Origin: Aquificota bacterium
GTDB lineage: Bacteria; Thermosulfidibacterota; Thermosulfidibacteria; Thermosulfidibacterales; B14-G1
Assembly: GCA_015486105.1 (NCBI GenBank)
Contig: WFSI01000033.1
Location: 1-51,041, forward strand
Reading direction: 5' to 3'
DNA length: 51,041 bases
Shown piece after piece: positions 49 through 51,041 of this stretch. Each line of letters begins with the position of its first letter. Position 1 is the stretch's first letter. The notes beneath the pieces are model-generated. The model ran no database searches, had not been told where the DNA came from, and was given only the letters and a program-made list of their open reading frames with translations. A program made the position numbers and the translations under genes.

Positions 49-960
49 TTACAGGCCTAAGACTTGTTGGATAATCCTTCCTCCTCCTTGGGCCAAAAGC
101 TCTTGGGCTAAATGGATGCCTATGGTTTTTGCCTCATGGAGTGGGCCCTTCTTTTGGCCCCTGAAGATCTCTTTTCCATTGGGGCTGGCTATGAGCCCTT
201 GAAGGGTTAGGGTGTTACCATCTGTTATTCCCAGGGCAGCCACGGGGACTTGGCAGGAGCCCCCTATGCATTTCAGAAAGGCCCTTTCGGCTCCTACCTC
301 CAAGGCTGTAGATGGATGGTGGATAGACCCTAATATCTCTTGCCAGTCTCCCTCCCGGACTTCCACGGCCAAGGCTCCCTGACCTATGGCTGGGAGGCAC
401 TCCTGAGGAGTAAGGACCCTGGAAGGCAAGGAGTTGATTCTCAATCTCTTCACCCCAGCTAAAGCCACTACAATGGCGTCCAGGGTTCCCTCTTTCAATT
501 TTCTATATCGGGTATCCAGATTTCCCCTGAGAGACTGGATCTTTAGGTCCGGCCTTCTTGCCAGAAGTTGGGCTTGCCTTCGGAGACTGGAGGTACCCAC
601 CTGGGCTTCTGAGGGGAGTTTCTCTAAGTAATCTCTCTCTTTCACCACAAGGAGATCCCAGGGCTCCTCTCTTTGAGGAATGGCCCCTATTTCCAGCCCC
701 GGTGGAAGATCGGCTGGCACGTCCTTCATAGAGTGAACGGCCATATCCACTCTTCCTTCCAAAAGGGCTTCTTCGATCTCCTTGACGAAGAGGCCCTTGC
801 CTCCAATCTTGGCAAGAGGGGAATCCAAGATTTTATCCCCTTTGGTTTTCACTACTACCAGTTCCACCCAGTGGGGAGAGATGCTCTCTATCAGATCTTT
901 GATGTGGTTTGCTTGCCATAGGGCCAGTTTACTGCCCCTGGTGCCTATCCGTATGGTCAT
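49..960 (-). CDS. hemC: porphobilinogen deaminase (hydroxymethylbilane synthase)
   Basis: ORF 49..978. It has the RIGTRGSKLALWQA N-terminal motif and a GGSCQVP cofactor-Cys region. Start placed at ATG 960 (MTIRIGTRGS), preceded by GGAGG. Overlaps the hemA 3' end. Confidence 0.93.
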   Translation of the reverse strand: MTIRIGTRGSKLALWQANHIKDLIESISPHWVELVVVKTKGDKILDSPLAKIGGKGLFVKEIEEALLEGRVDMAVHSMKDVPADLPPGLEIGAIPQREEPWDLLVVKERDYLEKLPSEAQVGTSSLRRQAQLLARRPDLKIQSLRGNLDTRYRKLKEGTLDAIVVALAGVKRLRINSLPSRVLTPQECLPAIGQGALAVEVREGDWQEILGSIHHPSTALEVGAERAFLKCIGGSCQVPVAALGITDGNTLTLQGLIASPNGKEIFRGQKKGPLHEAKTIGIHLAQELLAQGGGRIIQQVLGL

Positions 961-2218
961 CTTTTTCCTCCAAAGCAAAGAGTTCTTTCACAAGCTTGGC
1001 TACTTTTTCTCCCTCCCCCCGAGAGGCGGCCTCTTTTACATAGGACAGGGGAGTGTGAAGTATCTTTTTTACTATTGCTGTTGTAAGGGCTTCTAATGCC
1101 TTGGTCTCCTTGCCGTTCAGATGCATTCGGCTTATGGCCTTTTCTAACTCCTTCCGTCGGATCTCTTCACACCTATTCCTCAAAGAAACAATGACTGGTA
1201 CCACCTCTTGACTTTTAAGCCATTGGAGAAACCTATCTACCTCTTCAATTACTATGGCCTCGGCCTTTACGGATTCCTTTTCCCTCCGCCTTCGATTTTC
1301 TTCTACCACTTGCCCCAGATCATCTATGTCGTATAGGTACACGTTTTCCAACCTTTCCACTTCAGGGTCTACATCCCGGGGTACGGCGATATCGATGAAA
1401 AAGATGGGCCTTCTCTTTCTCTCCTTCATGGCCCTCTGGACAGCCTCTGATGTGATAAGGGTATGGGGAGCCCCTGTGGAAGTAATAACAATGTCTGCCT
1501 CTACCAGTTTTTCCTCCAGGTGCTCCATGGGCACAGCCTGGCCTTGTAGTTCCTGAGCCAGCTCCTGGGCCCTGGTTAGAGTCCTATTCACTACCGTGAG
1601 TCGAGAAACCCCTTGGTGTACCAGATGGCGGGCTGCCAGTTCTGCCATCTCCCCTGCTCCCACCAGCATAGCTTTTCTATTGGCCAAGTCCCCAAAAATC
1701 TTTTTGGACAGTTCCACGGCGGCATAGCTCACGGATACAGCGCTCTCCCCTATGGCTGTCTCTGTTCTCACCCTCTTGGAGACGGAGAGGGCTTTTTTCA
1801 TGAGCTGATTCAGTATGACCCCGGTAGCGTCACACGTGAGGGCCTCTTCGAAGGCATCTTTTACCTGGCCTACTATTTGGGGTTCTCCCAGTACCATGGA
1901 GTCTAAGCTGGAGGCTACCCTGAAGATATGTCTAACAGCCTCCTTACCTCGATAAATATAAAGGGATGGGAGAACAGCTTGGGAAGGTACACCTTTGCTT
2001 TCCTCCAAGAGGGAGAGGACGTGATCCTCTCCCTCCTCATTGGCCCATGAGTAAACCTCTACCCTATTGCAAGTTGAGAGCAATACAGCCTCTCTCACCC
2101 TTTTGTAGTCTAAAAGCTTTTCATAGAGCTTTTGGGCTTCTACCGCGCTGAAGGCCAGTTTCTCACGGAGTTCTACGGGGCTGGTGCGGTGATTGAGCCC
2201 TACTACGAGAATATCCAT
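929..2218 (-). CDS. hemA: glutamyl-tRNA reductase
   Basis: 429-aa ORF with the LSTCNRVEVY catalytic-Cys motif and the LVGAGEMAEL NADPH-binding loop. Lies directly upstream of hemC. Confidence 0.93.
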   Translation of the reverse strand: MDILVVGLNHRTSPVELREKLAFSAVEAQKLYEKLLDYKRVREAVLLSTCNRVEVYSWANEEGEDHVLSLLEESKGVPSQAVLPSLYIYRGKEAVRHIFRVASSLDSMVLGEPQIVGQVKDAFEEALTCDATGVILNQLMKKALSVSKRVRTETAIGESAVSVSYAAVELSKKIFGDLANRKAMLVGAGEMAELAARHLVHQGVSRLTVVNRTLTRAQELAQELQGQAVPMEHLEEKLVEADIVITSTGAPHTLITSEAVQRAMKERKRRPIFFIDIAVPRDVDPEVERLENVYLYDIDDLGQVVEENRRRREKESVKAEAIVIEEVDRFLQWLKSQEVVPVIVSLRNRCEEIRRKELEKAISRMHLNGKETKALEALTTAIVKKILHTPLSYVKEAASRGEGEKVAKLVKELFALEEKDDHTDRHQGQ

Positions 2219-2225
2219 GCTGTCC

Positions 2226-3047
2226 TCACATGGCAGAGTAACTGTGGAGGCCGGGAAGAAGCAAGTTAACCCCTAAGAATGTGAAGAGGACAGCTCCAAA
2301 GCCTATGACAGAAAGGATGGCTGCCCTTCTCCCCTGCCATCCAACAGTCATCCTTCCGTGGAGTATAGCGGCGTAGATGAGCCAGGTTATTAGGGACCAG
2401 GTCTCCTTGGGGTCCCAGCTCCAATAGGAACCCCAGGCATACTGGGCCCATATGGCACCGGTAATTATACCCAGGGTGAGAAAGGGAAATCCTAAGGTGA
2501 GGAGCCTGTAATTGAGATCGTCCAGTTGGCTGAGGGAAGGGAGCTTTTGGAAAAGGCCTCCCAGTTTCTTCTTTCTGATGTAGCGTTCCTGAATGAGATA
2601 CACAAAGCTCACCACAAAGGCCAGGGCAAATGCCCCCTCTCCTAAAAAGGATGTGGCAGCATGGATGTATAGCCATGTGCTTTTCAGAGCTGGAGGCAGG
2701 GGACTGATGGCTTGGGGGTTAAGGGTAGCAATCAGGACACCCAGGGAGTTCAGAGGGGCTACAAAAGAGCCCAGTATAGGAATCTTGTAACGCCACTCTA
2801 ACAGGAGATATCCCCCAGCTATCATCCAAGAGAATAGAGAGAGAGACTCGAATAGGTTGGTGGCAGGAAAGTGTTGAGCTATTAGACCCCGCACCGTCAG
2901 GGCTACGGTGTGAAGTATGAACCCGATAAAAAGCAGGATGTAGGCCTTTTGGGAAATAGCCTCCTTGGTCCGGTATAGATAGTATACATATAGAGCGGCC
3001 GAGGCCAGGTAAAAGACGGCGGCTAATCTGAAAATGATTATATCCAT
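2226..3047 (-). CDS. CcsA/ResC-family cytochrome c assembly (HemX-like) membrane protein
   Basis: 273-aa polytopic ORF with the Trp-rich motif WGSYWSWDPKETWSLITWL typical of CcsA/CcmC heme-handling proteins. It sits upstream of hemA, as hemX-like genes do. Confidence 0.8.
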   Translation of the reverse strand: MDIIIFRLAAVFYLASAALYVYYLYRTKEAISQKAYILLFIGFILHTVALTVRGLIAQHFPATNLFESLSLFSWMIAGGYLLLEWRYKIPILGSFVAPLNSLGVLIATLNPQAISPLPPALKSTWLYIHAATSFLGEGAFALAFVVSFVYLIQERYIRKKKLGGLFQKLPSLSQLDDLNYRLLTLGFPFLTLGIITGAIWAQYAWGSYWSWDPKETWSLITWLIYAAILHGRMTVGWQGRRAAILSVIGFGAVLFTFLGVNLLLPGLHSYSAM

Positions 3048-3217
3048 ATTTTTAATCTCCTGAGATCTCTTGGGAAAGGATAGCCCAGGGCCTTGTCCTT
3101 AATCAAGTTTCTTGGGCATCTCACCCTCTTTTTAGGGCCCTTCGTTGCTTTTCCTTGCCTTTTGTGATTTTTAAAGTCCGACAGCTTTCAGATGGAGGTG
3201 GATCTTTGAAGATCTGG

Positions 3218-3823
3218 ATGTGGATACAGGAGGGGGGAATTGTAATGTACCCCATTCTCTTCTCCTCTGTATTGGCTTTAGCCATCTTTCTGGAAAGGCT
3301 TTACGCCCTGAGGCGCGCCAATGTTATTCCCCAAGGTTTCGTTGCAGAGCTGGGGTTCTTTAAAGAAAGGGAGGGGGGAAGGGAAGCCCTGATTACCCTT
3401 TGTGATCGGTACGATTCAGCCCTGGCCCGGATCATCAAGGCCGGGGCGGAAAGGATAGCCTATGGGTTTTCGGAGGTGGCCCATGCCGTGGAGGGAATGG
3501 GACAGCACGAGGCAGCCCTTTTATCTACCAACCTTAGAATGATGGGAGCCATATCTAACTTGGCTCCCATGCTGGGTCTGTTGGGTACGGTTTTGGGTAT
3601 GATCCATGCCTTTTCCGTCATTGCCAGGGCAGGCACTGGCCGTCCAGAGCTCATAGCTTCGGGGATCTCTGAAGCCCTGTTAACCACAGCGGCAGGTCTC
3701 ATTGTGGCCATTCCTACCCTGGCGGGTTACCACTATCTCAGGAGCAAGATCGATCGGTATGTGGTGGAGATGGAAGATGCAGCCCTGTCCTTTCTGGAGA
3801 GACTGGTGGAACGGGAGGATTGA
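3218..3823 (+). CDS. MotA/TolQ/ExbB-family proton channel protein
   Basis: ORF 3155..3823. The family-like N-terminus is MWIQEGGIVMYPILFSSVLALAIFLERL and a conserved PMLGLLGTVLGMIHAF segment is present. Start is ambiguous: 3218, or 3245 which has a better SD (AGGAGGGG). Confidence 0.85.
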   Translation: MWIQEGGIVMYPILFSSVLALAIFLERLYALRRANVIPQGFVAELGFFKEREGGREALITLCDRYDSALARIIKAGAERIAYGFSEVAHAVEGMGQHEAALLSTNLRMMGAISNLAPMLGLLGTVLGMIHAFSVIARAGTGRPELIASGISEALLTTAAGLIVAIPTLAGYHYLRSKIDRYVVEMEDAALSFLERLVERED

Positions 3824-3826
3824 TTA

Positions 3827-4219
3827 ATGCGCTTTTTGAGGGGGCCTGAAGAGGATTTTAGCTTGGACTATACCCCCCTCATCGACGTAGTCTTTCTTCT
3901 TCTCATCTTCTTCATGGTGTCCACCCAGTTTGTCACTTTTCAAAAGCGCTTGGAAGTGGCCCTCCCCAAGGCCAAGGCTGGTAAAGTAGAGGTAAAGAAG
4001 AAAGAGGTGGTTATAGAAATGACCGCCTCTGGGGCCCTCTTCTGGAATGGGCGCCCCGTGTCCTGGAAGGGGTTGGAGGGGAGGCTTTCTCAGGAGAAAG
4101 GTAAGATAGGTTCTGTAGTTGTGAGAGCGGACCGCTCTTTGCCCTATGGGGATGTGGTCCGGGTTATGGGACTTTGCAAGGGGGCAGGCATCTCTGAGGT
4201 GGGTATAGCTGTCAGGTGA
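3827..4219 (+). CDS. ExbD/TolR-family biopolymer transport protein
   Basis: 130-aa ORF with a single TM segment (TPLIDVVFLLLIFFMV) and a periplasmic domain. It follows the exbB-like gene after 3 nt. Confidence 0.85.
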   Translation: MRFLRGPEEDFSLDYTPLIDVVFLLLIFFMVSTQFVTFQKRLEVALPKAKAGKVEVKKKEVVIEMTASGALFWNGRPVSWKGLEGRLSQEKGKIGSVVVRADRSLPYGDVVRVMGLCKGAGISEVGIAVR

Positions 4220-5097
4220 TCCCCCACGAGGTCCTCCACCATCCAGGGTATGTCCTGAATGGTTTTTACCGATAGAACCCTCTCCTTTCCCCTCCCCCAG
4301 ACCATTATGGGTACAGGGTTAGAGGTATGAGTAGTCCTCTGGGTATCTTCTACATTGCCGTGATCGCTGGCCAGGATTACAGTTTCATTCTTTAAGGGCA
4401 GATGTTCCAAAAGAGAGCAAATCATGGTGTCTAAATCCCGTATCACCTGGAGAGGGGTGCCATTTAACCTGCCGTGGCCCACCAGATCCGTCAGGAAGTA
4501 TTCATAGACGGTGAAGGTGTGTTCCTGGGTGATACGGCCAAGAATAGCTCCCGCTTCTTCAGGTGAGAGGAGGGGTAAGGATGCGCCTTTATGGGTATGG
4601 ACCAAGAGTGCGTTGGTGAAGTCGTGATAAAGGGCCTTCCCCTGGGAGAGGTCTTGGAGGGTTCTTAAAGGCACGCCTCCCGCCTGGGCATGATAGGTAG
4701 AAACCGAGGTCCTGGGTTGGTCTTTTTCGAAAAAGGCGGGTCTGAAGGCATTGGCGAAGCACATGTGGGATGTTTTCAATCCCCTTTTTCTTAGACGGCT
4801 GAAGAGGCCCTTTCTTTCTATTAGTTTCTTCAGGGTAGACCCTGGCAAGCCGCTTACATGTCTTCCCATGAGGGCAGGGGCGTTTATACCAGTAAAGAGG
4901 GCTGCTTGTCCCGTGGCACTTTGGGGTAGGCCTGGGATGCCTAACTGGGCATCGGCGGATACTCCTATTCCTTGGTAGGGTATCCCTCCAGGTAGCTGCC
5001 TTGCATCCAACCCTAATAGCTGAGTGTGACCAAAAGGAGACTTAGAGGGTAGGCCAAGGCCATCTACAAATAATAGGAGGACTCTGGGGAGTATCAC
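4144..5097 (-). CDS. alkaline-phosphatase-superfamily metalloenzyme (phosphomutase/phosphodiesterase-like)
   Basis: 317-aa ORF. It has an N-terminal metal-ligand motif (LLFVDGLG) and a distal ASDHGN motif typical of the alkaline phosphatase fold. Substrate cannot be inferred. Confidence 0.6.
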   Translation of the reverse strand: MILPRVLLLFVDGLGLPSKSPFGHTQLLGLDARQLPGGIPYQGIGVSADAQLGIPGLPQSATGQAALFTGINAPALMGRHVSGLPGSTLKKLIERKGLFSRLRKRGLKTSHMCFANAFRPAFFEKDQPRTSVSTYHAQAGGVPLRTLQDLSQGKALYHDFTNALLVHTHKGASLPLLSPEEAGAILGRITQEHTFTVYEYFLTDLVGHGRLNGTPLQVIRDLDTMICSLLEHLPLKNETVILASDHGNVEDTQRTTHTSNPVPIMVWGRGKERVLSVKTIQDIPWMVEDLVGDHLTAIPTSEMPAPLQSPITRTTSP

Positions 5098-6026
5098 AAG
5101 AGGATCTTAACGTAAGCCTTTTTTACCAAAGTGTTAAGCCAGTCTTGGTATCTCTTGGAGGCCCGTTCTTGGTATAGCTGCTTTGTTATATCCTTTTTCA
5201 CCTTATCAAAGGGGACATAGTTCTTCTCCTGCTTCTCCAGAATCTTCACAATATGCACCCCTGATTCTGTCTCTATAAGTTTCATGTCTCCTGGTTTACT
5301 CTCAGGGGAAAAGAGGAAGGCGTCTAAGGGTGCCATAAGCTCTCCCTTCCTTACCCACCCCATGTCCCCCCCTCCCTGGGCGTTAGGCCCTTGGGAATAA
5401 AGGGAGGCCATCTTCTTGAAACTCTCCCCCAATTCCAGCTTTTGGAGGATGTCCTGGGCTTTTTTCATGGCTTCCTTATCGCCCTCTCCCCTAGGAATGA
5501 AGATATCAGCCAGCCTTGCCTTGGCGGGTAAAAGATAGGTTTCGTCCTTGTGCTTTTCATAGTACTCCCGGGCATCTTCCTCGGGAACAGCTATCCTGGA
5601 CTTTACCTCCAGATTCACCACCTTAGAGATGAGGATTCTCCTTCTCACCTCCTCTCTATAAGCTTTTAAGGTGATGCCCCAGTCCTTTAGAAGTTTGTCA
5701 AAGGAGTCACTGTCAAGGTTGTTCTCCTTCATAAAGTTCTCTATGTAGTTATCTATTACATCCTCGGGGACGCTTAAACCCAGCTCCTTTGCCCTCTGAA
5801 CCTGTATGGTTTCAACCACGATATGGCGGAGGACCTCTTTCAGAGGAATATTGGGATTTCTAAGGGCTTTTCTGATGAGGATGGCCCTCTCCTGGAGTTC
5901 GGTGAGGGTGATAACCTGTTTATTTACCACTGCCACGACCTTCTCTATAATTACTGCCCCGCTCGGAGAGGGCAGGAAAGACTCCAGGATTAACAGTACA
6001 ATAGTTAGGATAACGCCCTTCTTCAT
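5094..6026 (-). CDS. SurA-like periplasmic chaperone / parvulin-type peptidyl-prolyl isomerase
   Basis: 310 aa with a signal peptide, a SurA-N-like helical region, and a parvulin core (GGGDMGWVRKGELMAPLD...GVHIVKI). Confidence 0.8.
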   Translation of the reverse strand: MKKGVILTIVLLILESFLPSPSGAVIIEKVVAVVNKQVITLTELQERAILIRKALRNPNIPLKEVLRHIVVETIQVQRAKELGLSVPEDVIDNYIENFMKENNLDSDSFDKLLKDWGITLKAYREEVRRRILISKVVNLEVKSRIAVPEEDAREYYEKHKDETYLLPAKARLADIFIPRGEGDKEAMKKAQDILQKLELGESFKKMASLYSQGPNAQGGGDMGWVRKGELMAPLDAFLFSPESKPGDMKLIETESGVHIVKILEKQEKNYVPFDKVKKDITKQLYQERASKRYQDWLNTLVKKAYVKILL

Positions 6027-6943
6027 TGTTCCTCCTCCAGCAAAGAGAGTTTGTCCTTATATATCTCAATCTCTCCCTTCTGCATAGCCAGGGTTAGCCA
6101 CTTGTCCAAGCAGCCTTCCATTTGGCTGCTTTGGAGATGCCTTTTGATCTCTTCTTTCACTTGGGAGAAGGGAAAGATCTCAGCCTTCTCTCTCTTTTCC
6201 AGTTTAAAGATGTGGTAGCCGTAAGGTGATCTAACAATAGGGCTCAACTGTCCCTTTTTAAGGGCGAAGAGGATATGAAATCCGGGAGGTTCCTCACCTT
6301 TATAGATAGGGTCCAGAAGCCCTCCCTTCTCTCCTTCGGGACCTATGGAATACTTCTTAGCCATGACTTGAAAGCGGGTCTTTCTGGACTTGAGGGCTTT
6401 CAAAACCTCTTGGGCATCCTTTTTACTTGTCACCACGATTTGTCTAGCAACCACCCTTTCGGGTATTTTGTACTTCCCTTTATGGCTTTTATAGTACCTC
6501 CGAGCCTCTCTCTCTGTGATGCTGGGAGGTGGGCAGAGTCTTTCTGTAACCTTACCCAGCAACCAGAGCCTGGCGAGCTTTTCTTCTACTTCCTCCTTTG
6601 AAGGACCGGTTTGGAGAGGGGTCTTTCCATGAATCTCCTCCGCCATGAGATCTAAAATGGAATGCGGTGGATGAAGGCCCATTTCCCGGGCCTTCTGGAG
6701 AAGAAGGTGCTCTTTTATAAGCTCTCTTAAAGCCAGTTCAGGAAGCCTCTGGTCTCCTTCCCTTTCCCCGGTGAGGTTGTCTAACCGATTCCTCAGTTCT
6801 CTCAGGGTGATGACCTCCCCATTAACCCGGGCCACCACCCGCCCTTTAGAGGTAGGGGAGTTTTTCCCGCATCCCCATGCAAGGGCTAAAAAGACCAGGA
6901 GGCTACTTAAGGGTAGAAGCTTTTTCTTTGAAAATCTGATCAA
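6023..6943 (-). CDS. parvulin-type peptidyl-prolyl isomerase lipoprotein
   Basis: 306 aa with a lipobox (LALAWGC) and a parvulin core (GGLLDPIYKGEEPPGF...SPYGYHIFKL). Confidence 0.75.
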   Translation of the reverse strand: MIRFSKKKLLPLSSLLVFLALAWGCGKNSPTSKGRVVARVNGEVITLRELRNRLDNLTGEREGDQRLPELALRELIKEHLLLQKAREMGLHPPHSILDLMAEEIHGKTPLQTGPSKEEVEEKLARLWLLGKVTERLCPPPSITEREARRYYKSHKGKYKIPERVVARQIVVTSKKDAQEVLKALKSRKTRFQVMAKKYSIGPEGEKGGLLDPIYKGEEPPGFHILFALKKGQLSPIVRSPYGYHIFKLEKREKAEIFPFSQVKEEIKRHLQSSQMEGCLDKWLTLAMQKGEIEIYKDKLSLLEEEQ

Positions 6944-7802
6944 GCCTGTCAGGGTAGGTTTCCACCTTCCATTTTTTTTCGATTTGGGCCATGAGTCTGT
7001 TGAAGGCTTCCTGCTGTTTTTCCTTGAGAAGCTGAGACTTGATTTTGGCCTTTACATCATTGAAAGACTTTTGCTCTGCCGGTTTCACCTCTTCTACCTG
7101 GATGATGTGATACCCGAAGGGGGTTTTCACTACAGGGCTGAGTTGACCAGGTTTCAGAGAGAAGGCGACATCGGAGAAGGGTTTTACCATGTCCTTTTGG
7201 GTAAAAAAACCTAATTCTCCGCCTTTTGACGCCGTGGCCTTGTCAACGGAGTACTTCTTGGCCAACTGAGCGAAGTCTGCGCCTTTTTGCAGCTCCTTCA
7301 GTATCTTTTGGGCCTGGGCTTTATCTTTTACCAGGATGTGCCTGGCCCTTATCCGTTTCTCTGTTTTGAATTCTTCTCTGTGGTTTTGGTAGTATTCCTG
7401 AACCTCTTTGTCGGTGACCCGAACGTTTTTCAATTCTCCCTTCAGATACCGATCCAGGATGAGTTCGTCCCTGAACTGGCTGATTTTCCTTTTCATTGTC
7501 TGGTCTTCCTTGATACCTTTGGCCTTGGCTGTCTTTACCAGCATGCGTTTCTTAATAATGTTGTCCAAGAATTTGACTCTTAGATCCTTGTTCTGATGGA
7601 CGGCCCATTGAAGCTGAGGGGGGAGGGTTTCCAAGGCTGCTTTGTAATCCTCCGCGGTTATCACTTCATTATCGAAGCGAGCCAGTACGGGGCTTTTTTC
7701 CTTGATACTGGTGACCTTGGCTTTTTTCGCCTCTGCCCTCAAAAGAGGGCCTGCAAGGACCAACGCTGTAAGAAGGAAGAGGGATACGATGCCTTTCTTC
7801 AT
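6903..7802 (-). CDS. parvulin-type peptidyl-prolyl isomerase (PrsA/PpiC-like)
   Basis: 299 aa with a signal peptide and a parvulin core (GGELGFFTQKDMVKPF...TPFGYHIIQV). Confidence 0.78.
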   Translation of the reverse strand: MKKGIVSLFLLTALVLAGPLLRAEAKKAKVTSIKEKSPVLARFDNEVITAEDYKAALETLPPQLQWAVHQNKDLRVKFLDNIIKKRMLVKTAKAKGIKEDQTMKRKISQFRDELILDRYLKGELKNVRVTDKEVQEYYQNHREEFKTEKRIRARHILVKDKAQAQKILKELQKGADFAQLAKKYSVDKATASKGGELGFFTQKDMVKPFSDVAFSLKPGQLSPVVKTPFGYHIIQVEEVKPAEQKSFNDVKAKIKSQLLKEKQQEAFNRLMAQIEKKWKVETYPDRLDQIFKEKASTLK

Positions 7803-46295: not shown

Positions 46296-46370
46296 GCGGG
46301 AATAGCTCAGGGGTAGAGCACTGCCTTGCCAAGGCAGGGGTCGCGGGTTCAAATCCCGTTTCCCGCTCCA
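46296..46370 (+). tRNA. tRNA-Gly (anticodon GCC), encoded CCA
   Basis: Hand-folded 75-nt cloverleaf: GCGGGAA acceptor stem, anticodon stem CTGCC/GGCAG, loop TTGCCAA, and T-loop GGTTCAAATCC. Confidence 0.9.
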
Positions 46371-46380
46371 TTCTCTATCA

Positions 46381-46455
46381 GGCGGCATAGCCAAGTGGTA
46401 AGGCAGGGGACTGCAAATCCCTCATTCCCCGGTTCAAATCCGGGTGCCGCCTCCA
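46381..46455 (+). tRNA. tRNA-Cys (anticodon GCA), encoded CCA
   Basis: Hand-folded 75-nt cloverleaf: GGCGGCA acceptor stem, anticodon loop CUGCAAA, and T-arm CCCGG/CCGGG. Confidence 0.88.
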
Positions 46456-46774: not shown

Positions 46775-47026
46775 TTATCTTCCCGATGGAGTAGGTGAAC
46801 ACTTGGGAGTGAAATCACTGGGGAGTTTGGACTGGGGTGCGCGGGTTCCAGCGGTGACTCGAATTTCCGCTATAGTCCCAGCCGGGCTGCCACCTCCTCG
46901 TAGTCTGGAGCCTCGGCGTAGAGCTTTCGCCCCGCGCGGCCCGAGCGAGAGTGACCAGCCCGACTTGCTCAGGTTCAGTGTCACGCCCGGTGCGATTTTG
47001 ATTCTCCTCCAAAAACGAAAGCTCAT
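46775..47026 (-). CDS. DUF4236-like small protein (N-terminal motif only)
   Basis: 83-aa ORF. The first 35 aa (MSFRFWRRIKIAPGVTLNLSKSGWSLSLGPRGAKA) match the DUF4236 signature. The rest is Arg/Gly/Pro-rich and unlike the family. The start overlaps the upstream stop as ATGA. Confidence 0.5.
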   Translation of the reverse strand: MSFRFWRRIKIAPGVTLNLSKSGWSLSLGPRGAKALRRGSRLRGGGSPAGTIAEIRVTAGTRAPQSKLPSDFTPKCSPTPSGR

Positions 47027-47805
47027 AATCCGCCTCCCTTCGCCGCTTGCAGGCTTTCTGTGCGGAGCATGATTAAATCTTGGTCTAGGCCCTGCCGGAG
47101 CACATCTAGACGATGGGAAACTGCTACCAGCTGCTCTGTGGAAATGGGTCTCAAGCGAAACGGGAAAAGACTTGGCGACTCAAAGGCTGCTCTCAATGTA
47201 ATTGAACCGTTGGGTCGAGAGTACAATAAAGCCTCGGCCAACCAAGCGATAAGCTCCACTCGAGCTATGTGTAGTGAAAGCCCAGCGGTATAGAAGCCTT
47301 TTCCCGACGTATCTTTTAAGACACCCCAATCTACGAAGCTCCGCAGCACCCGGCGTGTTGCTCTATACACCGTTTCGCGTTCCCCATATTGCTCCCGCAC
47401 ACGGCGCTGTACCTGGCTAGCCGCAGCCATTCCCTGAAGCCTGAGCAATCGCCCCACATGAGCCGCTACAGCTCCCCAGAAAGGATATACCGCCATAGCC
47501 ATACCCCAATGGACTGCGATATGATCTTCCCGAGGCAGTTGTGAGAGAAGTTCGAGGCCTTCATGCTGAAGAGAATGAAGGTCGCGCGGGGGACGGACCC
47601 AGATCTTCATTAGGATGGTGATCGCCTTCTCCCGATTGCCACGTTGGGCCTCCCCACCCACGGAAAGCTTCTCTTCGAGCAATTCTTGGAGGGCACTGTA
47701 AATAGAAGCCACGTCGTTCCCGGCAAGCACCAGATTGGCAGTTCTCTCCAACCATTCAAGACGAATGCGCTGGCTGAAACCGATCTGGGTTAGGCGATTG
47801 TTCAT
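47023..47805 (-). CDS. 260-aa helical protein in the brxA position of a BREX-like cluster (function unknown)
   Basis: Clean ORF that is ATGA-coupled to genes on both sides. It is helical with a C-terminal winged-helix-like stretch (RVLRSFVDWGVLKDTSGKGFY). The BrxA/DUF1819 assignment rests on position and vague resemblance only. Confidence 0.4.
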   Translation of the reverse strand: MNNRLTQIGFSQRIRLEWLERTANLVLAGNDVASIYSALQELLEEKLSVGGEAQRGNREKAITILMKIWVRPPRDLHSLQHEGLELLSQLPREDHIAVHWGMAMAVYPFWGAVAAHVGRLLRLQGMAAASQVQRRVREQYGERETVYRATRRVLRSFVDWGVLKDTSGKGFYTAGLSLHIARVELIAWLAEALLYSRPNGSITLRAAFESPSLFPFRLRPISTEQLVAVSHRLDVLRQGLDQDLIMLRTESLQAAKGGGL

Positions 47806-49811
47806 CGGGCACTCCTATAAATCTGGACATAAGGAACGAGCAGTTCCTCTAAACTAATGCCTCCGTGACAAACAAGGACTTCGCTTTTTCTTACAAAAGC
47901 AACCCGGTTCGGAGCGATAAGGGCGAAATACTCTTCTGGGAGGCCAACAGGTGGCCACTCCAAAGAATCAGGAAATCGCTCTTTTACTTGAGCCCTGAGT
48001 ATGGGGTCGGAGTAGACACGCACGCGTTGTCCACGGAGGTCGGCAACAGCCCCCTCTTTAGGTTGCCCTATGCCTTTCGCCTCGATATTGCCATGGTCCG
48101 AGGCAAGATAAACTTGAAAACCCCAATCATGGAGAAGACCAAGAAGGTTCCGCAAGAATCCTTGCCTAACCCATTGCCGAACCTGGTTATGCATACCTGC
48201 GGTACCTAGTTCCATGCCGTGCATAATCCGGTCAACCTTGTCTATTACCAGTCCTACGATGCGTAGTTTAGGTAGACTCAGCAGCTCGGAAACTTGATCC
48301 AGGTCTCCATCGCCCAGCCCTTTGGCATAAGCCACCTCATTTGCACTAAGACCCCTGTCAGCCCAGAACTGGGCCCAGAGACCGGGTTCCTTGTTTGTAG
48401 TATGGATACTCTCAGGGAAATAGAAGGGGATCTTGCCGGAGAAAGCAGCCTGCCTGGAGACTGAGGTGATGGTAGGAATCCAGGAAAAGAGCACTTCTTC
48501 ACGGAATCGCAAATTTGGATCCAGCTCCCCAAGCTCCTCCTTCAAGATAACCCATTGGTCTAGGGCAAGGCCATCCACCAGAAGAAAAGCAAGTTTTGAG
48601 CCTCGGTCCCTGAGTATTGAGTAGGCGAAAAATCGAGGAAGGTGATGGAGCATGATGGGCTTTGTAGCTGGGAGATTGATAAGACTTGCGTAGTGCTTGG
48701 TTACCCATTTCAAGAATCGCGTGTCCACCTGGACCGTGAGCTCCTCGACCCTTTCGCACAATTTCTCCTTTTCTTCACCCAACGCCCAGTCCTCGGTACT
48801 CAGCACTTTGAGCTGTGCCCATCGATAGGCGAATTTGAGCCACTCCTCATAACGCGCCTCCACTTCGGGGATGGTTTCCCCTATAGAATCCAACAGCCCC
48901 CTAAAACGGCGAAGGCGGTTTTCCATTGGAGAGATTTTGATGCCATAGGCTACCCAGCTCTTGGCAAGATCCTCGGCTTGCGGATGAGGAACAGGTTGAA
49001 GCAGGCCCTCCAGGAAGAGATTGTCGATATAAACGCGAACGTCGTCGTGGTCAAAAGGCAAAAGTGCAGGTCCTGGGAACTCGAAGTCGTAGCGCGAGGT
49101 GTCCTCATGAACGGCACCGTCCTTTGGCTTTGCCATTGAGTCAAGGAACGCCGACCAGCGTTCTTGCAAGAACGCGAAAAAGGCTTGCGCATCTGGAACA
49201 ATGGCTTCTAAAGGCCAATCCTGGAATAGGCCACTTTGGCGAAGGACCTGGATAAAGCGCTCGTCGAGGGTGGCTGGAATTCTAATGCCTCGGTAATGGC
49301 GGCGTAGCAAGACCCGGAGCAAGTCTGAAGGCGTCTTTATGAGTTCAGGAGCGATTTCAAACACGTGGCGAAGAACAAAATCCTTAGTGGCATTATCGCC
49401 AAGAGGCCCTGGGTTGAACCTTTCCTGGGCATCGTACAGTGCATCTAGATAGGCCCGGTCAAGTGCTGCGATGACGGGATAACTAAGGTTCGGGAAGAGA
49501 TCACCCAGGTTGAAGGAGAGCTTGCGCCCTGCCTGGAGCAAGTCGTAGGGCAAGGAATGGAGATCGTTGGAGGGCGATCTCAACACGACCACCAAGTCTG
49601 TCTCCTCTCCCCGGTCCCAACGGGAGCGAAACCTGGATTCGTAGGCATAGCGAAAAGTGATGTGATCCTCGAATGGGATCAGCTCAAACCCCCTTTCTCG
49701 GATCCCTTGGAGGATATCTTCTTCAAGGAGTAGACCGTCTGGGTCCGCGACCAGGGTAAGCCGAGCAACCTGGGGTGTAAACTCACCAAGGATCTGGTCA
49801 CGCCAACTCAT
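47802..49811 (-). CDS. pglZ: PglZ-domain protein (alkaline-phosphatase fold, BREX component)
   Basis: 669 aa. The C-terminal half has the PglZ signatures LAFLLVDGLALDQW, PTITSVSRQAAFSG, YLASDHGN and VCHGGISLEELLVPYVQI. Confidence 0.8.
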   Translation of the reverse strand: MSWRDQILGEFTPQVARLTLVADPDGLLLEEDILQGIRERGFELIPFEDHITFRYAYESRFRSRWDRGEETDLVVVLRSPSNDLHSLPYDLLQAGRKLSFNLGDLFPNLSYPVIAALDRAYLDALYDAQERFNPGPLGDNATKDFVLRHVFEIAPELIKTPSDLLRVLLRRHYRGIRIPATLDERFIQVLRQSGLFQDWPLEAIVPDAQAFFAFLQERWSAFLDSMAKPKDGAVHEDTSRYDFEFPGPALLPFDHDDVRVYIDNLFLEGLLQPVPHPQAEDLAKSWVAYGIKISPMENRLRRFRGLLDSIGETIPEVEARYEEWLKFAYRWAQLKVLSTEDWALGEEKEKLCERVEELTVQVDTRFLKWVTKHYASLINLPATKPIMLHHLPRFFAYSILRDRGSKLAFLLVDGLALDQWVILKEELGELDPNLRFREEVLFSWIPTITSVSRQAAFSGKIPFYFPESIHTTNKEPGLWAQFWADRGLSANEVAYAKGLGDGDLDQVSELLSLPKLRIVGLVIDKVDRIMHGMELGTAGMHNQVRQWVRQGFLRNLLGLLHDWGFQVYLASDHGNIEAKGIGQPKEGAVADLRGQRVRVYSDPILRAQVKERFPDSLEWPPVGLPEEYFALIAPNRVAFVRKSEVLVCHGGISLEELLVPYVQIYRSAR

Positions 49812-50506
49812 CGCTCTTCACCGAGCAAATCCCATGGCGTTACAATCCCAAGTGGACGTTCCTTAGACTTGCCACTTTCTGTTATAAGGATGGCCTGGAG
49901 GCGGGGAATGCCTCTGCCAATAGCTTTCTCAAACATCTCGAAAGCTGCATCCAATGGATCGTTCCGTGACAAGTATCGACATATTCCCCTTTCTTCAAAA
50001 GCCAAAGCGTCGACTACAGTAGCTTCTTCAAGATCTGCGAGACCTACATCACGAGCGTCTTCTAACCATTTTACGATGCCTTCCGATGAAAGTAGAACAT
50101 ATTCGCCTTCATGATCTACCACCACCTGTGAGAAGTCGTTCTCTTTCATAAAGCTTATACAATCGGTGAGAGAGTCTTCGTCGGTAAATATACGGATAGC
50201 TCTCTGGAATTTGGGGATGAGCTTCGGTGGCCTTGCAATTGATTTAAGCACAGATTCCAATTCTTGAACTACTTCGGGTCGAGGATCGGCCAAAATCGTC
50301 TCGGGATAACAGCGATCGTGGACAATTGCGTTTCGCAATTGTCCTATACTCAAAAGGATCTCTTTACGTCTACGCACAGTGACGTCCTTTTGGGCTGCAA
50401 ATTCAACAACGGCAGTGAAGGACTTGTCCCTCTCAAGGCCAGTTCTCTGGCGGAGCAAGTCGTCTAGTTCATTGAACTTCTGGACAAACAGATCACCGCT
50501 TCTCAT
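49808..50506 (-). CDS. HEPN-like (R-x4-H) N-terminal domain fused to a CBS-domain pair
   Basis: 232 aa. The N-terminal roughly 95 aa are helical with SIGQLRNAIVHD (RNAIVH = R-x4-H). Two CBS-like repeats follow (IRIFTDEDSL...FSQVVVDHEGEYVLLSSEGIVKWL, and RYLSRNDPL...QAILITESGKSKERPLGIVTPWDLL). Confidence 0.55.
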   Translation of the reverse strand: MRSGDLFVQKFNELDDLLRQRTGLERDKSFTAVVEFAAQKDVTVRRRKEILLSIGQLRNAIVHDRCYPETILADPRPEVVQELESVLKSIARPPKLIPKFQRAIRIFTDEDSLTDCISFMKENDFSQVVVDHEGEYVLLSSEGIVKWLEDARDVGLADLEEATVVDALAFEERGICRYLSRNDPLDAAFEMFEKAIGRGIPRLQAILITESGKSKERPLGIVTPWDLLGEER

Positions 50507-51041
50507 CTCTTTCCCTCTACTCGCACAAGGATCAGGGATACCATTTCCGGCAAGATCTGGGCCCTGCGCTCCAGTTGCTCTTTGAAGCGTTGTTCCTCCT
50601 GCTCTAAAAGCCTGAGTCGATAGTTACGGACCTGGGGCAGTCCGATGCGCTCGATGGCTCTGCATCGTGCAGCAAAGGCGTACTCGCCCTTTTCACGCTC
50701 CCGCGCAAGGCGCTCTTGGTGAGCCTGCACCAGCTCGTCGTAGATCGTCTTCCCCTGTTGTTCCGCCGCCTTCCGGAGTTGCTCGAAGGCTTGATGAGAG
50801 CTCTCGATGTCCAAATGCCGGAGGATCGTGGGGGAGGTGGTCAGCAGTTGATCCCAGATGTGCCGGGCAGTCGGCGCAAACACCCGACCATCGTCGGCCA
50901 GGAACAAAGGCAACACGCGCCGTTGGCGCGTGAGTGCTGAGCTTTGAGGACTGAGTGTTGAGTCAATCTGAATCGAAATTTCCCACAAGGACCAAAAGCC
51001 TCGTATCTCTGGGGCAAGGCCAGGAAGCGTGATGACCGGGA
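50503..51041 (-). CDS. C-terminal end of a large protein, probably an SNF2/COG0553-type helicase (BrxHII-like); 5'-truncated by the window edge
   Basis: I translated past the listed TTG and the frame stays open to position 51041. The tail (LPLFLADDGRVFAPTARHIWDQLL ... ERIGLPQVRNYRLRLLEQEEQRFKEQLERRAQILPEMVSLILVRV) resembles, from memory, the C-terminal domain of helicases encoded next to pglZ. No helicase motif lies inside the window. Confidence 0.4.
   Translation of the reverse strand, partial: PVITLPGLAPEIRGFWSLWEISIQIDSTLSPQSSALTRQRRVLPLFLADDGRVFAPTARHIWDQLLTTSPTILRHLDIESSHQAFEQLRKAAEQQGKTIYDELVQAHQERLAREREKGEYAFAARCRAIERIGLPQVRNYRLRLLEQEEQRFKEQLERRAQILPEMVSLILVRVEGKR

Follow-up and report, generated by a model that had tools for sequence, protein, structure and literature searches.

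Within a 51,041-nucleotide stretch of DNA from an Aquificota bacterium (GenBank assembly GCA_015486105.1, contig WFSI01000033.1, positions 1 to 51,041 of the forward strand; hereafter the window), we characterized a minus-strand gene, here called X, whose 232-aa product combines an N-terminal domain resembling HEPN ribonucleases (RNases) with a C-terminal pair of CBS domains, and which sits between brxHII and pglZ in a type 3 bacteriophage exclusion (BREX) operon. Type 3 is, to our knowledge, the least studied type of BREX. X is a rare, optional occupant of this junction and an accessory to BREX-3. We consider it reasonably probable that X is a HEPN RNase gated by a nucleotide, an optional effector of the backup or abortive type that was captured into a slot of type 3 BREX operons.

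Domains of the X protein

The features of the gene and its product are as follows.

49808 to 50506, minus strand: gene X (HEPN-CBS protein), 232 aa, ATG start, from the list of open reading frames (ORFs)
50222 to 50506, minus strand: N-terminal helical domain, HEPN-like, residues 1 to 95, from helices in AlphaFold2 (AF2) models and profile and fold matches to HepT
50318 to 50335, minus strand: R58-N-A-I-V-H63, putative HEPN catalytic Rx4H motif, from its invariance and its register with the RNxxxH of HepT
49820 to 50212, minus strand: CBS pair (Bateman module), residues ~99 to 229, from Pfam PF00571, a PDB profile search, and Foldseek
49829 to 49849, minus strand: G220-I-V-T-P-W-D226, the canonical G-h-h-T-x-x-D motif in CBS2, from conservation among homologs

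A first-pass annotation, made from the sequence alone, had described this ORF as overlapping both neighbors at ATGA tetranucleotides and as carrying an R-x4-H motif, and both descriptions hold when read directly in the bases. Plus-strand “tcat” at 50503 to 50506 is the overlap of the brxHII stop with the X start, “tcat” at 49808 to 49811 is that of the X stop with the pglZ start, and judged from sequence X is translationally coupled to both genes. Residues 53 to 64 of the product read SIGQLRNAIVHD, and the reverse complement of plus-strand positions 50318 to 50335, CGA AAC GCA ATT GTC CAC, encodes RNAIVH. A bare R-x4-H easily arises by chance in 232 aa; this one is set apart by R58, N59, and H63 being unchanged in all 42 homologs of our alignment, down to 29% identity (a word-indexed search gave 56 homologs, and relatives in 380 species were detected when a single genome was scanned for each species). 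The conservation of R and H among homologs, which the first-pass annotation had proposed as a check on its own claim, is therefore complete, and the X family has the conserved Rx4-6H, often RNxxxH, by which HEPN domains are recognized.

Structural and profile comparisons of the N-terminal region point in the same direction. The AF2 models place helices at residues 3 to 22, 30 to 40, 42 to 46, 48 to 61, and 77 to 91, and the Rx4H motif lies within the helix at 48 to 61 and its C-terminal end. A profile of the domain compared to the PDB recovered the HepT HEPN toxin first (5yep, 6m6w, and 6m6u; E values of 0.004 to 0.008), with LRNAIVHD aligned over LRNIAVHD; the helices on either side of the motif are in register as well. 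Because the CBS pairs swamped the fold search with the full-length model, we modeled and searched the N-terminal domain alone; the isolated model is all-helical (predicted local distance difference test score [pLDDT] of 84.7), and its best Foldseek matches were HepT (probability, 0.80; TM, 0.55/0.42) and the sacsin HEPN domain, at E values of 0.65 to 0.86. Finally, 15 of the 42 homologs gave sub-threshold matches to PF18735 (HEPN_RiboL-PSP) at the motif region, the best with an E value of 1.3e-4, and a few gave sub-threshold matches to the HepT-like (PF01934) or Apea (PF18739) HEPN families.

Several observations weigh against this assignment. X itself had no significant HEPN match in Pfam, NCBIfam, PADLOC, or PHROGs, in which CBS alone was found, and the Pfam HEPN matches across the family all fell below threshold (13 to 16 bits against cut-offs of 23 to 28). 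A Foldseek E value of ~0.65 for a small helical domain is not significant on its own, and a single-sequence search of X against the PDB returned only noise, such as annexin. The assignment draws on four independent, individually weak lines (motif invariance, PF18735, the HepT profile, and Foldseek), and on these sequence and model comparisons we judge that the N-terminal ~95 residues very probably form a HEPN domain, one that by the same profile searches is outside all curated HEPN families. The HEPN claim of the first-pass annotation is upheld by the invariant RNxxxH and by HepT ranking first by both profile and Foldseek, and falls short where curated models are concerned; of the two model searches that annotation had suggested, the one for HEPN gave sub-threshold matches in homologs only, and the one for CBS (PF00571) was significant.

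A different reading of the helical domain is suggested by JGI, which names several homologs “predicted transcriptional regulator,” and by the presence of the CBS domains of the CcpN repressor among the fold matches: X could be a CcpN-like, ligand-responsive transcription regulator that joins a helical DNA-binding domain to the CBS pair. However, the isolated domain matched HEPN best, with DNA-binding folds reaching probabilities of only 0.06 to 0.13; no Pfam helix-turn-helix match was found in X or its homologs, and a helix-turn-helix does not explain the invariant RNxxxH. We regard such a regulator as exceedingly improbable.

The two CBS-like repeats seen in the first-pass annotation proved robust. 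Pfam PF00571 matched X in two stretches (E value of 2.4e-08), and the family profile matched the CBS protein MJ1225 in the PDB with an E value of 1.6e-08. The full-length AF2 model (pLDDT of 91.3) had 165 Foldseek matches in the PDB at E values of ≤0.001, with TMt up to 0.76, and the top 50 fold matches listed are all CBS-domain structures, with AMP, ATP, S-adenosylmethionine (SAM), or c-di-AMP as the ligand. We are confident from these profile and model matches that the C-terminal half of X is a CBS pair. The G-h-h-T-x-x-D motif of CBS domains binds ribose. In CBS2, conservation across the homolog alignment is 90% or higher at G220, I221, T223, and D226 and complete at P224, but CBS1 has LLSSEG and departs from the motif, so that each protomer of X probably has one canonical ligand site, located in CBS2.

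The brxHII-pglZ junction and the X family

The gene 5′ of X matched the PADLOC profile PDLC02500 (BrxHI/BrxHII) with an E value of 4.2e-63 over profile positions 764 to 931 of 933, and the gene 3′ of X is BREX_PglZ_3, which scored 878.6 bits to NCBIfam NF033449 against a cut-off of 250 and matched Pfam PglZ with an E value of 1.4e-25. A BREX-3 PglZ, BrxHII, and BrxA are together in one operon by NCBIfam and PADLOC profiles, which identifies the host cluster as BREX type 3, and by these matches X is inside the 3′ half of the operon. The three core genes in the window are the following.

50503 to 51041, minus strand: 3′ end of brxHII (Snf2-type BREX-3 helicase), cut by the window edge, from PADLOC PDLC02500
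47802 to 49811, minus strand: pglZ, BREX type 3, from NCBIfam NF033449 and Pfam PglZ
47023 to 47805, minus strand: brxA, from PADLOC PDLC02444 (BrxA; E value of 2.9e-115)

The window stops within brxHII, and BrxF, BrxC/PglY, and PglXI would fall past its edge; related X-containing loci have BrxC and an N6_N4 methyltransferase upstream.

PglZ-3 has more than 5,400 homologs. We surveyed 80 metagenomic PglZ-3 loci (L089 to L168), in about 62 of which the C terminus of BrxHII could be located. BrxHII directly abuts PglZ in 46 of these ~62 loci (about 74%), an insert is present in about a quarter, and X is present in one. The other occupants are proteins of the SIR2_2 (1,272 aa), MBL-fold (~390 aa), PDDEXK_3, and 23S_rRNA_IVP (four-helix-bundle) types, as well as an AAA_21/SMC ATPase accompanied by a partner (examples are L092:156-3971, L093, L097, L102, L113, and L167:2121-4811). 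With 46 empty junctions and varied occupants elsewhere, the brxHII-pglZ junction is a variable accessory slot. The closest relatives of the PglZ in the window (77 to 79% identity) lack X, and about 30 BREX-clade homologs of X were found compared to the more than 5,400 of PglZ. We rejected X as a core BREX-3 component on the basis of its presence in 1 of ~62 loci; the notion that it is a fixed part of the operon, into which the first-pass annotation had described it as locked, was not borne out, given the variability of the slot.

Where X does occur in BREX-3, its position is precise. The order BrxHII-X-PglZ(-BrxA) was found in the window and eight further loci, nine independent BREX-3 loci overall, in which the embedded copies have 78% (P0003), 67% (P0007), 64% (P0011), 54% (P0020 and P0021), 52% (P0025 and L012), and, in the divergent L139, 35% identity to the query, and at most of these junctions the start and stop codons overlap or abut. 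The linkage to pglZ for which the first-pass annotation had suggested a neighborhood survey is accordingly real in these nine loci and rare in BREX-3 as a whole. In a neighbor-joining tree (no support values), the BREX-embedded copies, including L139, form one clade, and X identity across loci roughly tracks that of BrxHII and PglZ. One member, P0009, counts against a strict association: it is nested in the BREX clade and does not adjoin BREX genes. This copy (L001/L009:2247-2945; Nitrospirae metagenome-assembled genome RFGF01000017.1) is 63% identical to X, lies near a contig end, and is preceded by a UDG-family gene and a 319-aa protein of unknown type; perhaps it is a copy that has escaped, or else a remnant.

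The tight translational coupling of X to BrxHII and PglZ, and the rough covariation of its identity with theirs, would also suit a regulatory or sensor subunit of BREX-3, whose CBS pair reads adenine-nucleotide or SAM status and tunes BrxHII/PglZ or the stability of BREX mRNA, with the HEPN domain as an RNA-binding module or one for processing of narrow specificity; noncatalytic or specialized HEPN domains exist, e.g., in MtlR and Swt1 (PMC3710099). However, the slot is empty in about three-quarters of BREX-3 loci and holds unrelated effectors in others, and the strict invariance of R, N, and H across the aligned sequences argues for catalysis. We consider a regulatory subunit unlikely.

The BREX clade is a small part of a much larger family. 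The N-terminal profile recovered 1,700 representatives (clusters at 50% identity) at E values of ≤1e-3 and 999 at ≤1e-10, and the best 150 representatives are nearly all 230 to 240 aa long with HEPN at the N terminus; with ~1,000 clusters of near-uniform length, the HEPN-then-CBS proteins are a large family of stable architecture. One rare fusion (P0233; 489 aa) has a ~300-aa N-terminal domain ahead of the HEPN-CBS module, and another match of odd length, P0311, is a mis-called ORF.

Most of this family resides in nondefense neighborhoods, e.g., beside ABC transporters or lspA-rluD-pyrR, which weighs against a defense role in general. Among the 80 best of the 380 species-level matches, 76 do not adjoin BREX genes, 3 adjoin PglZ, and 1 cannot be assigned because its contig is too short, and the homologs that do not adjoin BREX comprise those of the genome scan with at most 43% identity together with P0009, P0034, P0036, P0049, and P0055. 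The distant homologs in Bacillales are conserved chromosomal genes that have as conserved neighbors lspA-rluD-pyrR, a DUF421 protein, an ABC-2 permease, or an ABC transporter; many copies are preceded by the transporter and permease as a pair, and one runs into the start of lspA, with rluD-pyrR downstream (L007:10001-11205; loci L049 to L087). These chromosomal housekeeping settings hint at a physiological, nondefense role for most of the family. An association of the whole family with defense was rejected, as PglZ adjoins just 3 of those 80 matches and the conserved neighbors elsewhere are transporter or housekeeping genes, and a defense role can therefore not be assumed for the family at large.

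A few homologs are on plasmids, in contexts resembling mobile elements. On a “Ca. Chlorohelix” plasmid (L173; NZ_CP128403.1, positions 704 to 7663), genes for a DNA methyltransferase (946 aa) and a DUF4209 protein lie upstream of a distant homolog, and the homolog itself overlaps the stop codon of a hypothetical gene (345 aa); this may be a different modification-linked context. Full-length homologs with 28 to 29% identity are present in two “phage” records (OR849199.1, 2,232 bp, and OR846607.1:15153-15833; Listeria and Enterococcus), where both are unannotated and may be either true phage cargo or bacterial contamination.

X also differs in base composition from the genes around it. In the window its GC content is 46.8%, and its GC content at third codon positions (GC3) is 43.8%, compared to 55.7% for PglZ and 65.9% for BrxHII. 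In all seven loci compared (the window, L003, L004, L005, L169, L170, and L171), the GC content of X is below that of the BREX genes on both sides by 6 to 13 points, and its GC3 by 11 to 26 points. The low GC content could reflect a foreign origin or selection for low toxin expression.

This foreign composition, the Bacillales settings among transporters and housekeeping genes, and the predominance of matches away from BREX are all in keeping with X being a physiological stress- or energy-responsive RNase that hitch-hikes, or an addiction-type toxin that stabilizes the BREX island, with no direct antiphage role. Against this, the one BREX clade has kept its exact position and coding overlaps down to 35% identity, and this retention through divergence argues for selection in the BREX context; furthermore, the slot elsewhere holds recognized defense effectors such as SIR2 proteins and ABC ATPases. 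A passenger or addiction role therefore appears to us improbable for the BREX clade.

Proposed role and remaining features of the locus

The Rx4-6H site of HEPN RNases, which are metal-independent endoRNases, is a composite one formed in the dimer; CBS pairs dimerize and bind adenine-containing ligands. The domains of X, their conservation, and the position and distribution of the gene come from the analyses above; what we infer beyond them is an RNase activity, its gating, a ligand, and a defense phenotype, in the following sequence of steps. One clade of the HEPN-then-CBS family would have been captured into the brxHII-pglZ slot of type 3 BREX operons. X would dimerize via its CBS pairs, bringing two HEPN domains together to build a composite Rx4H active site, and an adenine-containing ligand, either bound or lost at the canonical CBS2 site, would switch the RNase on. 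The active enzyme would then cut host RNA, phage RNA, or both, providing a second abortive or growth-arresting layer once BREX is overwhelmed or inhibited. By analogy with known systems, a backup or abortive effector appears to be the most economical role for X in BREX-3.

The BREX host system narrows the candidate ligands to SAM, ATP/ADP (from the helicase and ATPases of BREX), or a change in nucleotides induced by phage, and a search for the activating ligand may do best to start from the BREX-embedded clade. A more specific possibility is that the CBS pair of the BREX clade senses SAM or a related adenine metabolite and that X guards BREX, such that loss of the ligand when a phage depletes SAM would free the HEPN RNase and abort the infection. 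The SAM lyase of phage T3 depletes SAM and disarms SAM-dependent BREX (bioRxiv 10.1101/2023.02.27.530186). SAM-binding CBS pairs (MJ0100, 3kpb, and human CBS, 4uuu) are among the structural neighbors of X, beside others that bind AMP, ATP, or c-di-AMP. Although we hold this version to be very unlikely, it would, if true, parallel at the level of a metabolite the sensing of Ocr by PARIS.

In all X-containing BREX-3 loci with enough upstream sequence, pglXI and brxHII are separated by a second embedded module (L003:5260-7219, L004:4248-7213, L005:358-1883, L169:3742-5604, and L170:3482-6748). These modules are either AAA_15/AAA_21 ABC ATPases, with or without DUF4276, DUF3696, or a small partner, or a combination of SIR2_2, DUF87, and 23S_rRNA_IVP. 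With this second module, the X-containing BREX-3 loci are multilayered.

Beyond the BREX core genes, two further features mark the distal side of the cluster.

46775 to 47026, minus strand: ORF of 83 aa with a DUF4236 domain (Pfam PF14020, E value of 2.1e-13), overlapping the brxA stop by 4 nt
46296 to 46455, plus strand: tRNA-Gly(GCC) and tRNA-Cys(GCA), from ARAGORN

The DUF4236 ORF may be the last, cotranslated gene of the BREX operon; it was not found 3′ of brxA in the related loci examined, and a 522-aa DUF4236 protein is encoded three genes upstream of a distant X homolog on a Rhodococcus plasmid (L174). Directly past the end of the BREX cluster, GC content falls to ~0.46 around the two tRNA genes, and this site is a likely island boundary or integration site. 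A scan of the cluster for promoters and terminators found sites no more numerous than in shuffled sequence and was uninformative on operon structure.

Comparison with known systems

HEPN genes in Pgl operons were proposed as backup effectors in 2013 (PMC3710099), and a 2026 survey catalogued auxiliary or backup nuclease effectors of the HEPN, PIN, Schlafen, and OLD/TOPRIM types in BREX loci (PMC12839542). X resembles these published accessories in being a probable HEPN endoRNase gene within a core operon that is interpreted as a backup suicidal effector. The BREX HEPN accessories described in the survey stand alone, are fused to MNT, or belong to the pEK499_p136 or RloC family; the term “CBS” was not found in its main text or searched supplements, and in the same portions the brxHII-pglZ junction is not singled out as a slot (PMC12839542).

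Fusions of HEPN and CBS, with or without HD, were also described in 2013, in a Swt1/Abi2-like group (alr3009 and Pelobacter gi 118580987). In that computational work, the CBS domains were predicted to sense nucleotides and thereby regulate RNA stability, and no link to BREX or Pgl was made (PMC3710099). X shares the domain combination of these fusions, a likeness drawn from their published description. The remark in the first-pass annotation that such a protein was not known as a described BREX accessory is narrowly true, since the components of the idea are already published: HEPN and CBS fusions (PMC3710099), HEPN backups in BREX and Pgl loci (PMC3710099 and PMC12839542), and a validated CBS-HEPN defense protein, DS-11 (PMC13092281). 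A literature search returned no papers on type 3 BREX with a CBS domain and none under “CBS-HEPN.” What appears to be undescribed in the searchable literature is the HEPN-then-CBS family as such, its monophyletic BREX-3 clade, and the brxHII-pglZ cargo slot. If X is just another backup toxin, the finding is incremental; at the same time, the slot and its resident HEPN-CBS clade form a concrete, small accessory module.

The best profile and fold match for the N-terminal domain is the HEPN toxin of the HepT/MntA HEPN-MNT toxin-antitoxin system (PDB accession no. 5yep, 6m6w, and 7bxo), albeit a remote one (E value of 0.004; TM of 0.42 to 0.55). Unlike HepT/MntA, X has no adjacent MNT antitoxin gene, its neighbors being BrxHII and PglZ, and the mode of control presumably differs: HepT is controlled by AMPylation, whereas X is presumably controlled by its fused CBS pair.

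The closest functional parallel we propose is DS-11 of Escherichia coli (WP_000257686.1), a single-protein antiphage system from DefensePredictor in which an N-terminal region is followed by a CBS pair and then by a HEPN domain at the C terminus (PMC13092281). Its protection is lost with the substitution Y157A in the CBS pair or with R330A or H335A in the HEPN domain (PMC13092281). X and DS-11 are alike in combining a CBS pair and an RNxxxH HEPN domain in one polypeptide; their CBS pairs align with an hhalign probability of 92%, and in this alignment F125 of X, a position that is F or Y in all 42 homologs, is matched to Y157, the residue of DS-11 that contacts adenine, within a D[FY]SQ motif common to both. 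The proposed logic of an adenine-ligand-gated HEPN RNase is identical for the two, and by this analogy we propose that X acts like DS-11, as a nucleotide-gated RNase. The differences are nonetheless substantial. The domain order is HEPN-CBS in X but N-terminal domain, CBS, and HEPN in DS-11; X has 232 aa compared to the 365 aa of DS-11 and lacks its ~120-aa N-terminal region; and DS-11 was cloned and validated on its own, as a single protein, whereas X is lodged inside a BREX-3 operon. The HEPN domains of the two align at the motif level only (E value of 0.22), which tempers the parallel, and we rejected X as an ortholog of DS-11 because of the reversed order and because the CBS pair alone aligns. 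Taken together, X and DS-11 suggest that sensor-effectors in which CBS domains gate a HEPN RNase form a widespread class, with about 1,000 clusters at 50% identity, and that this CBS/HEPN class was assembled at least twice, in opposite domain orders.

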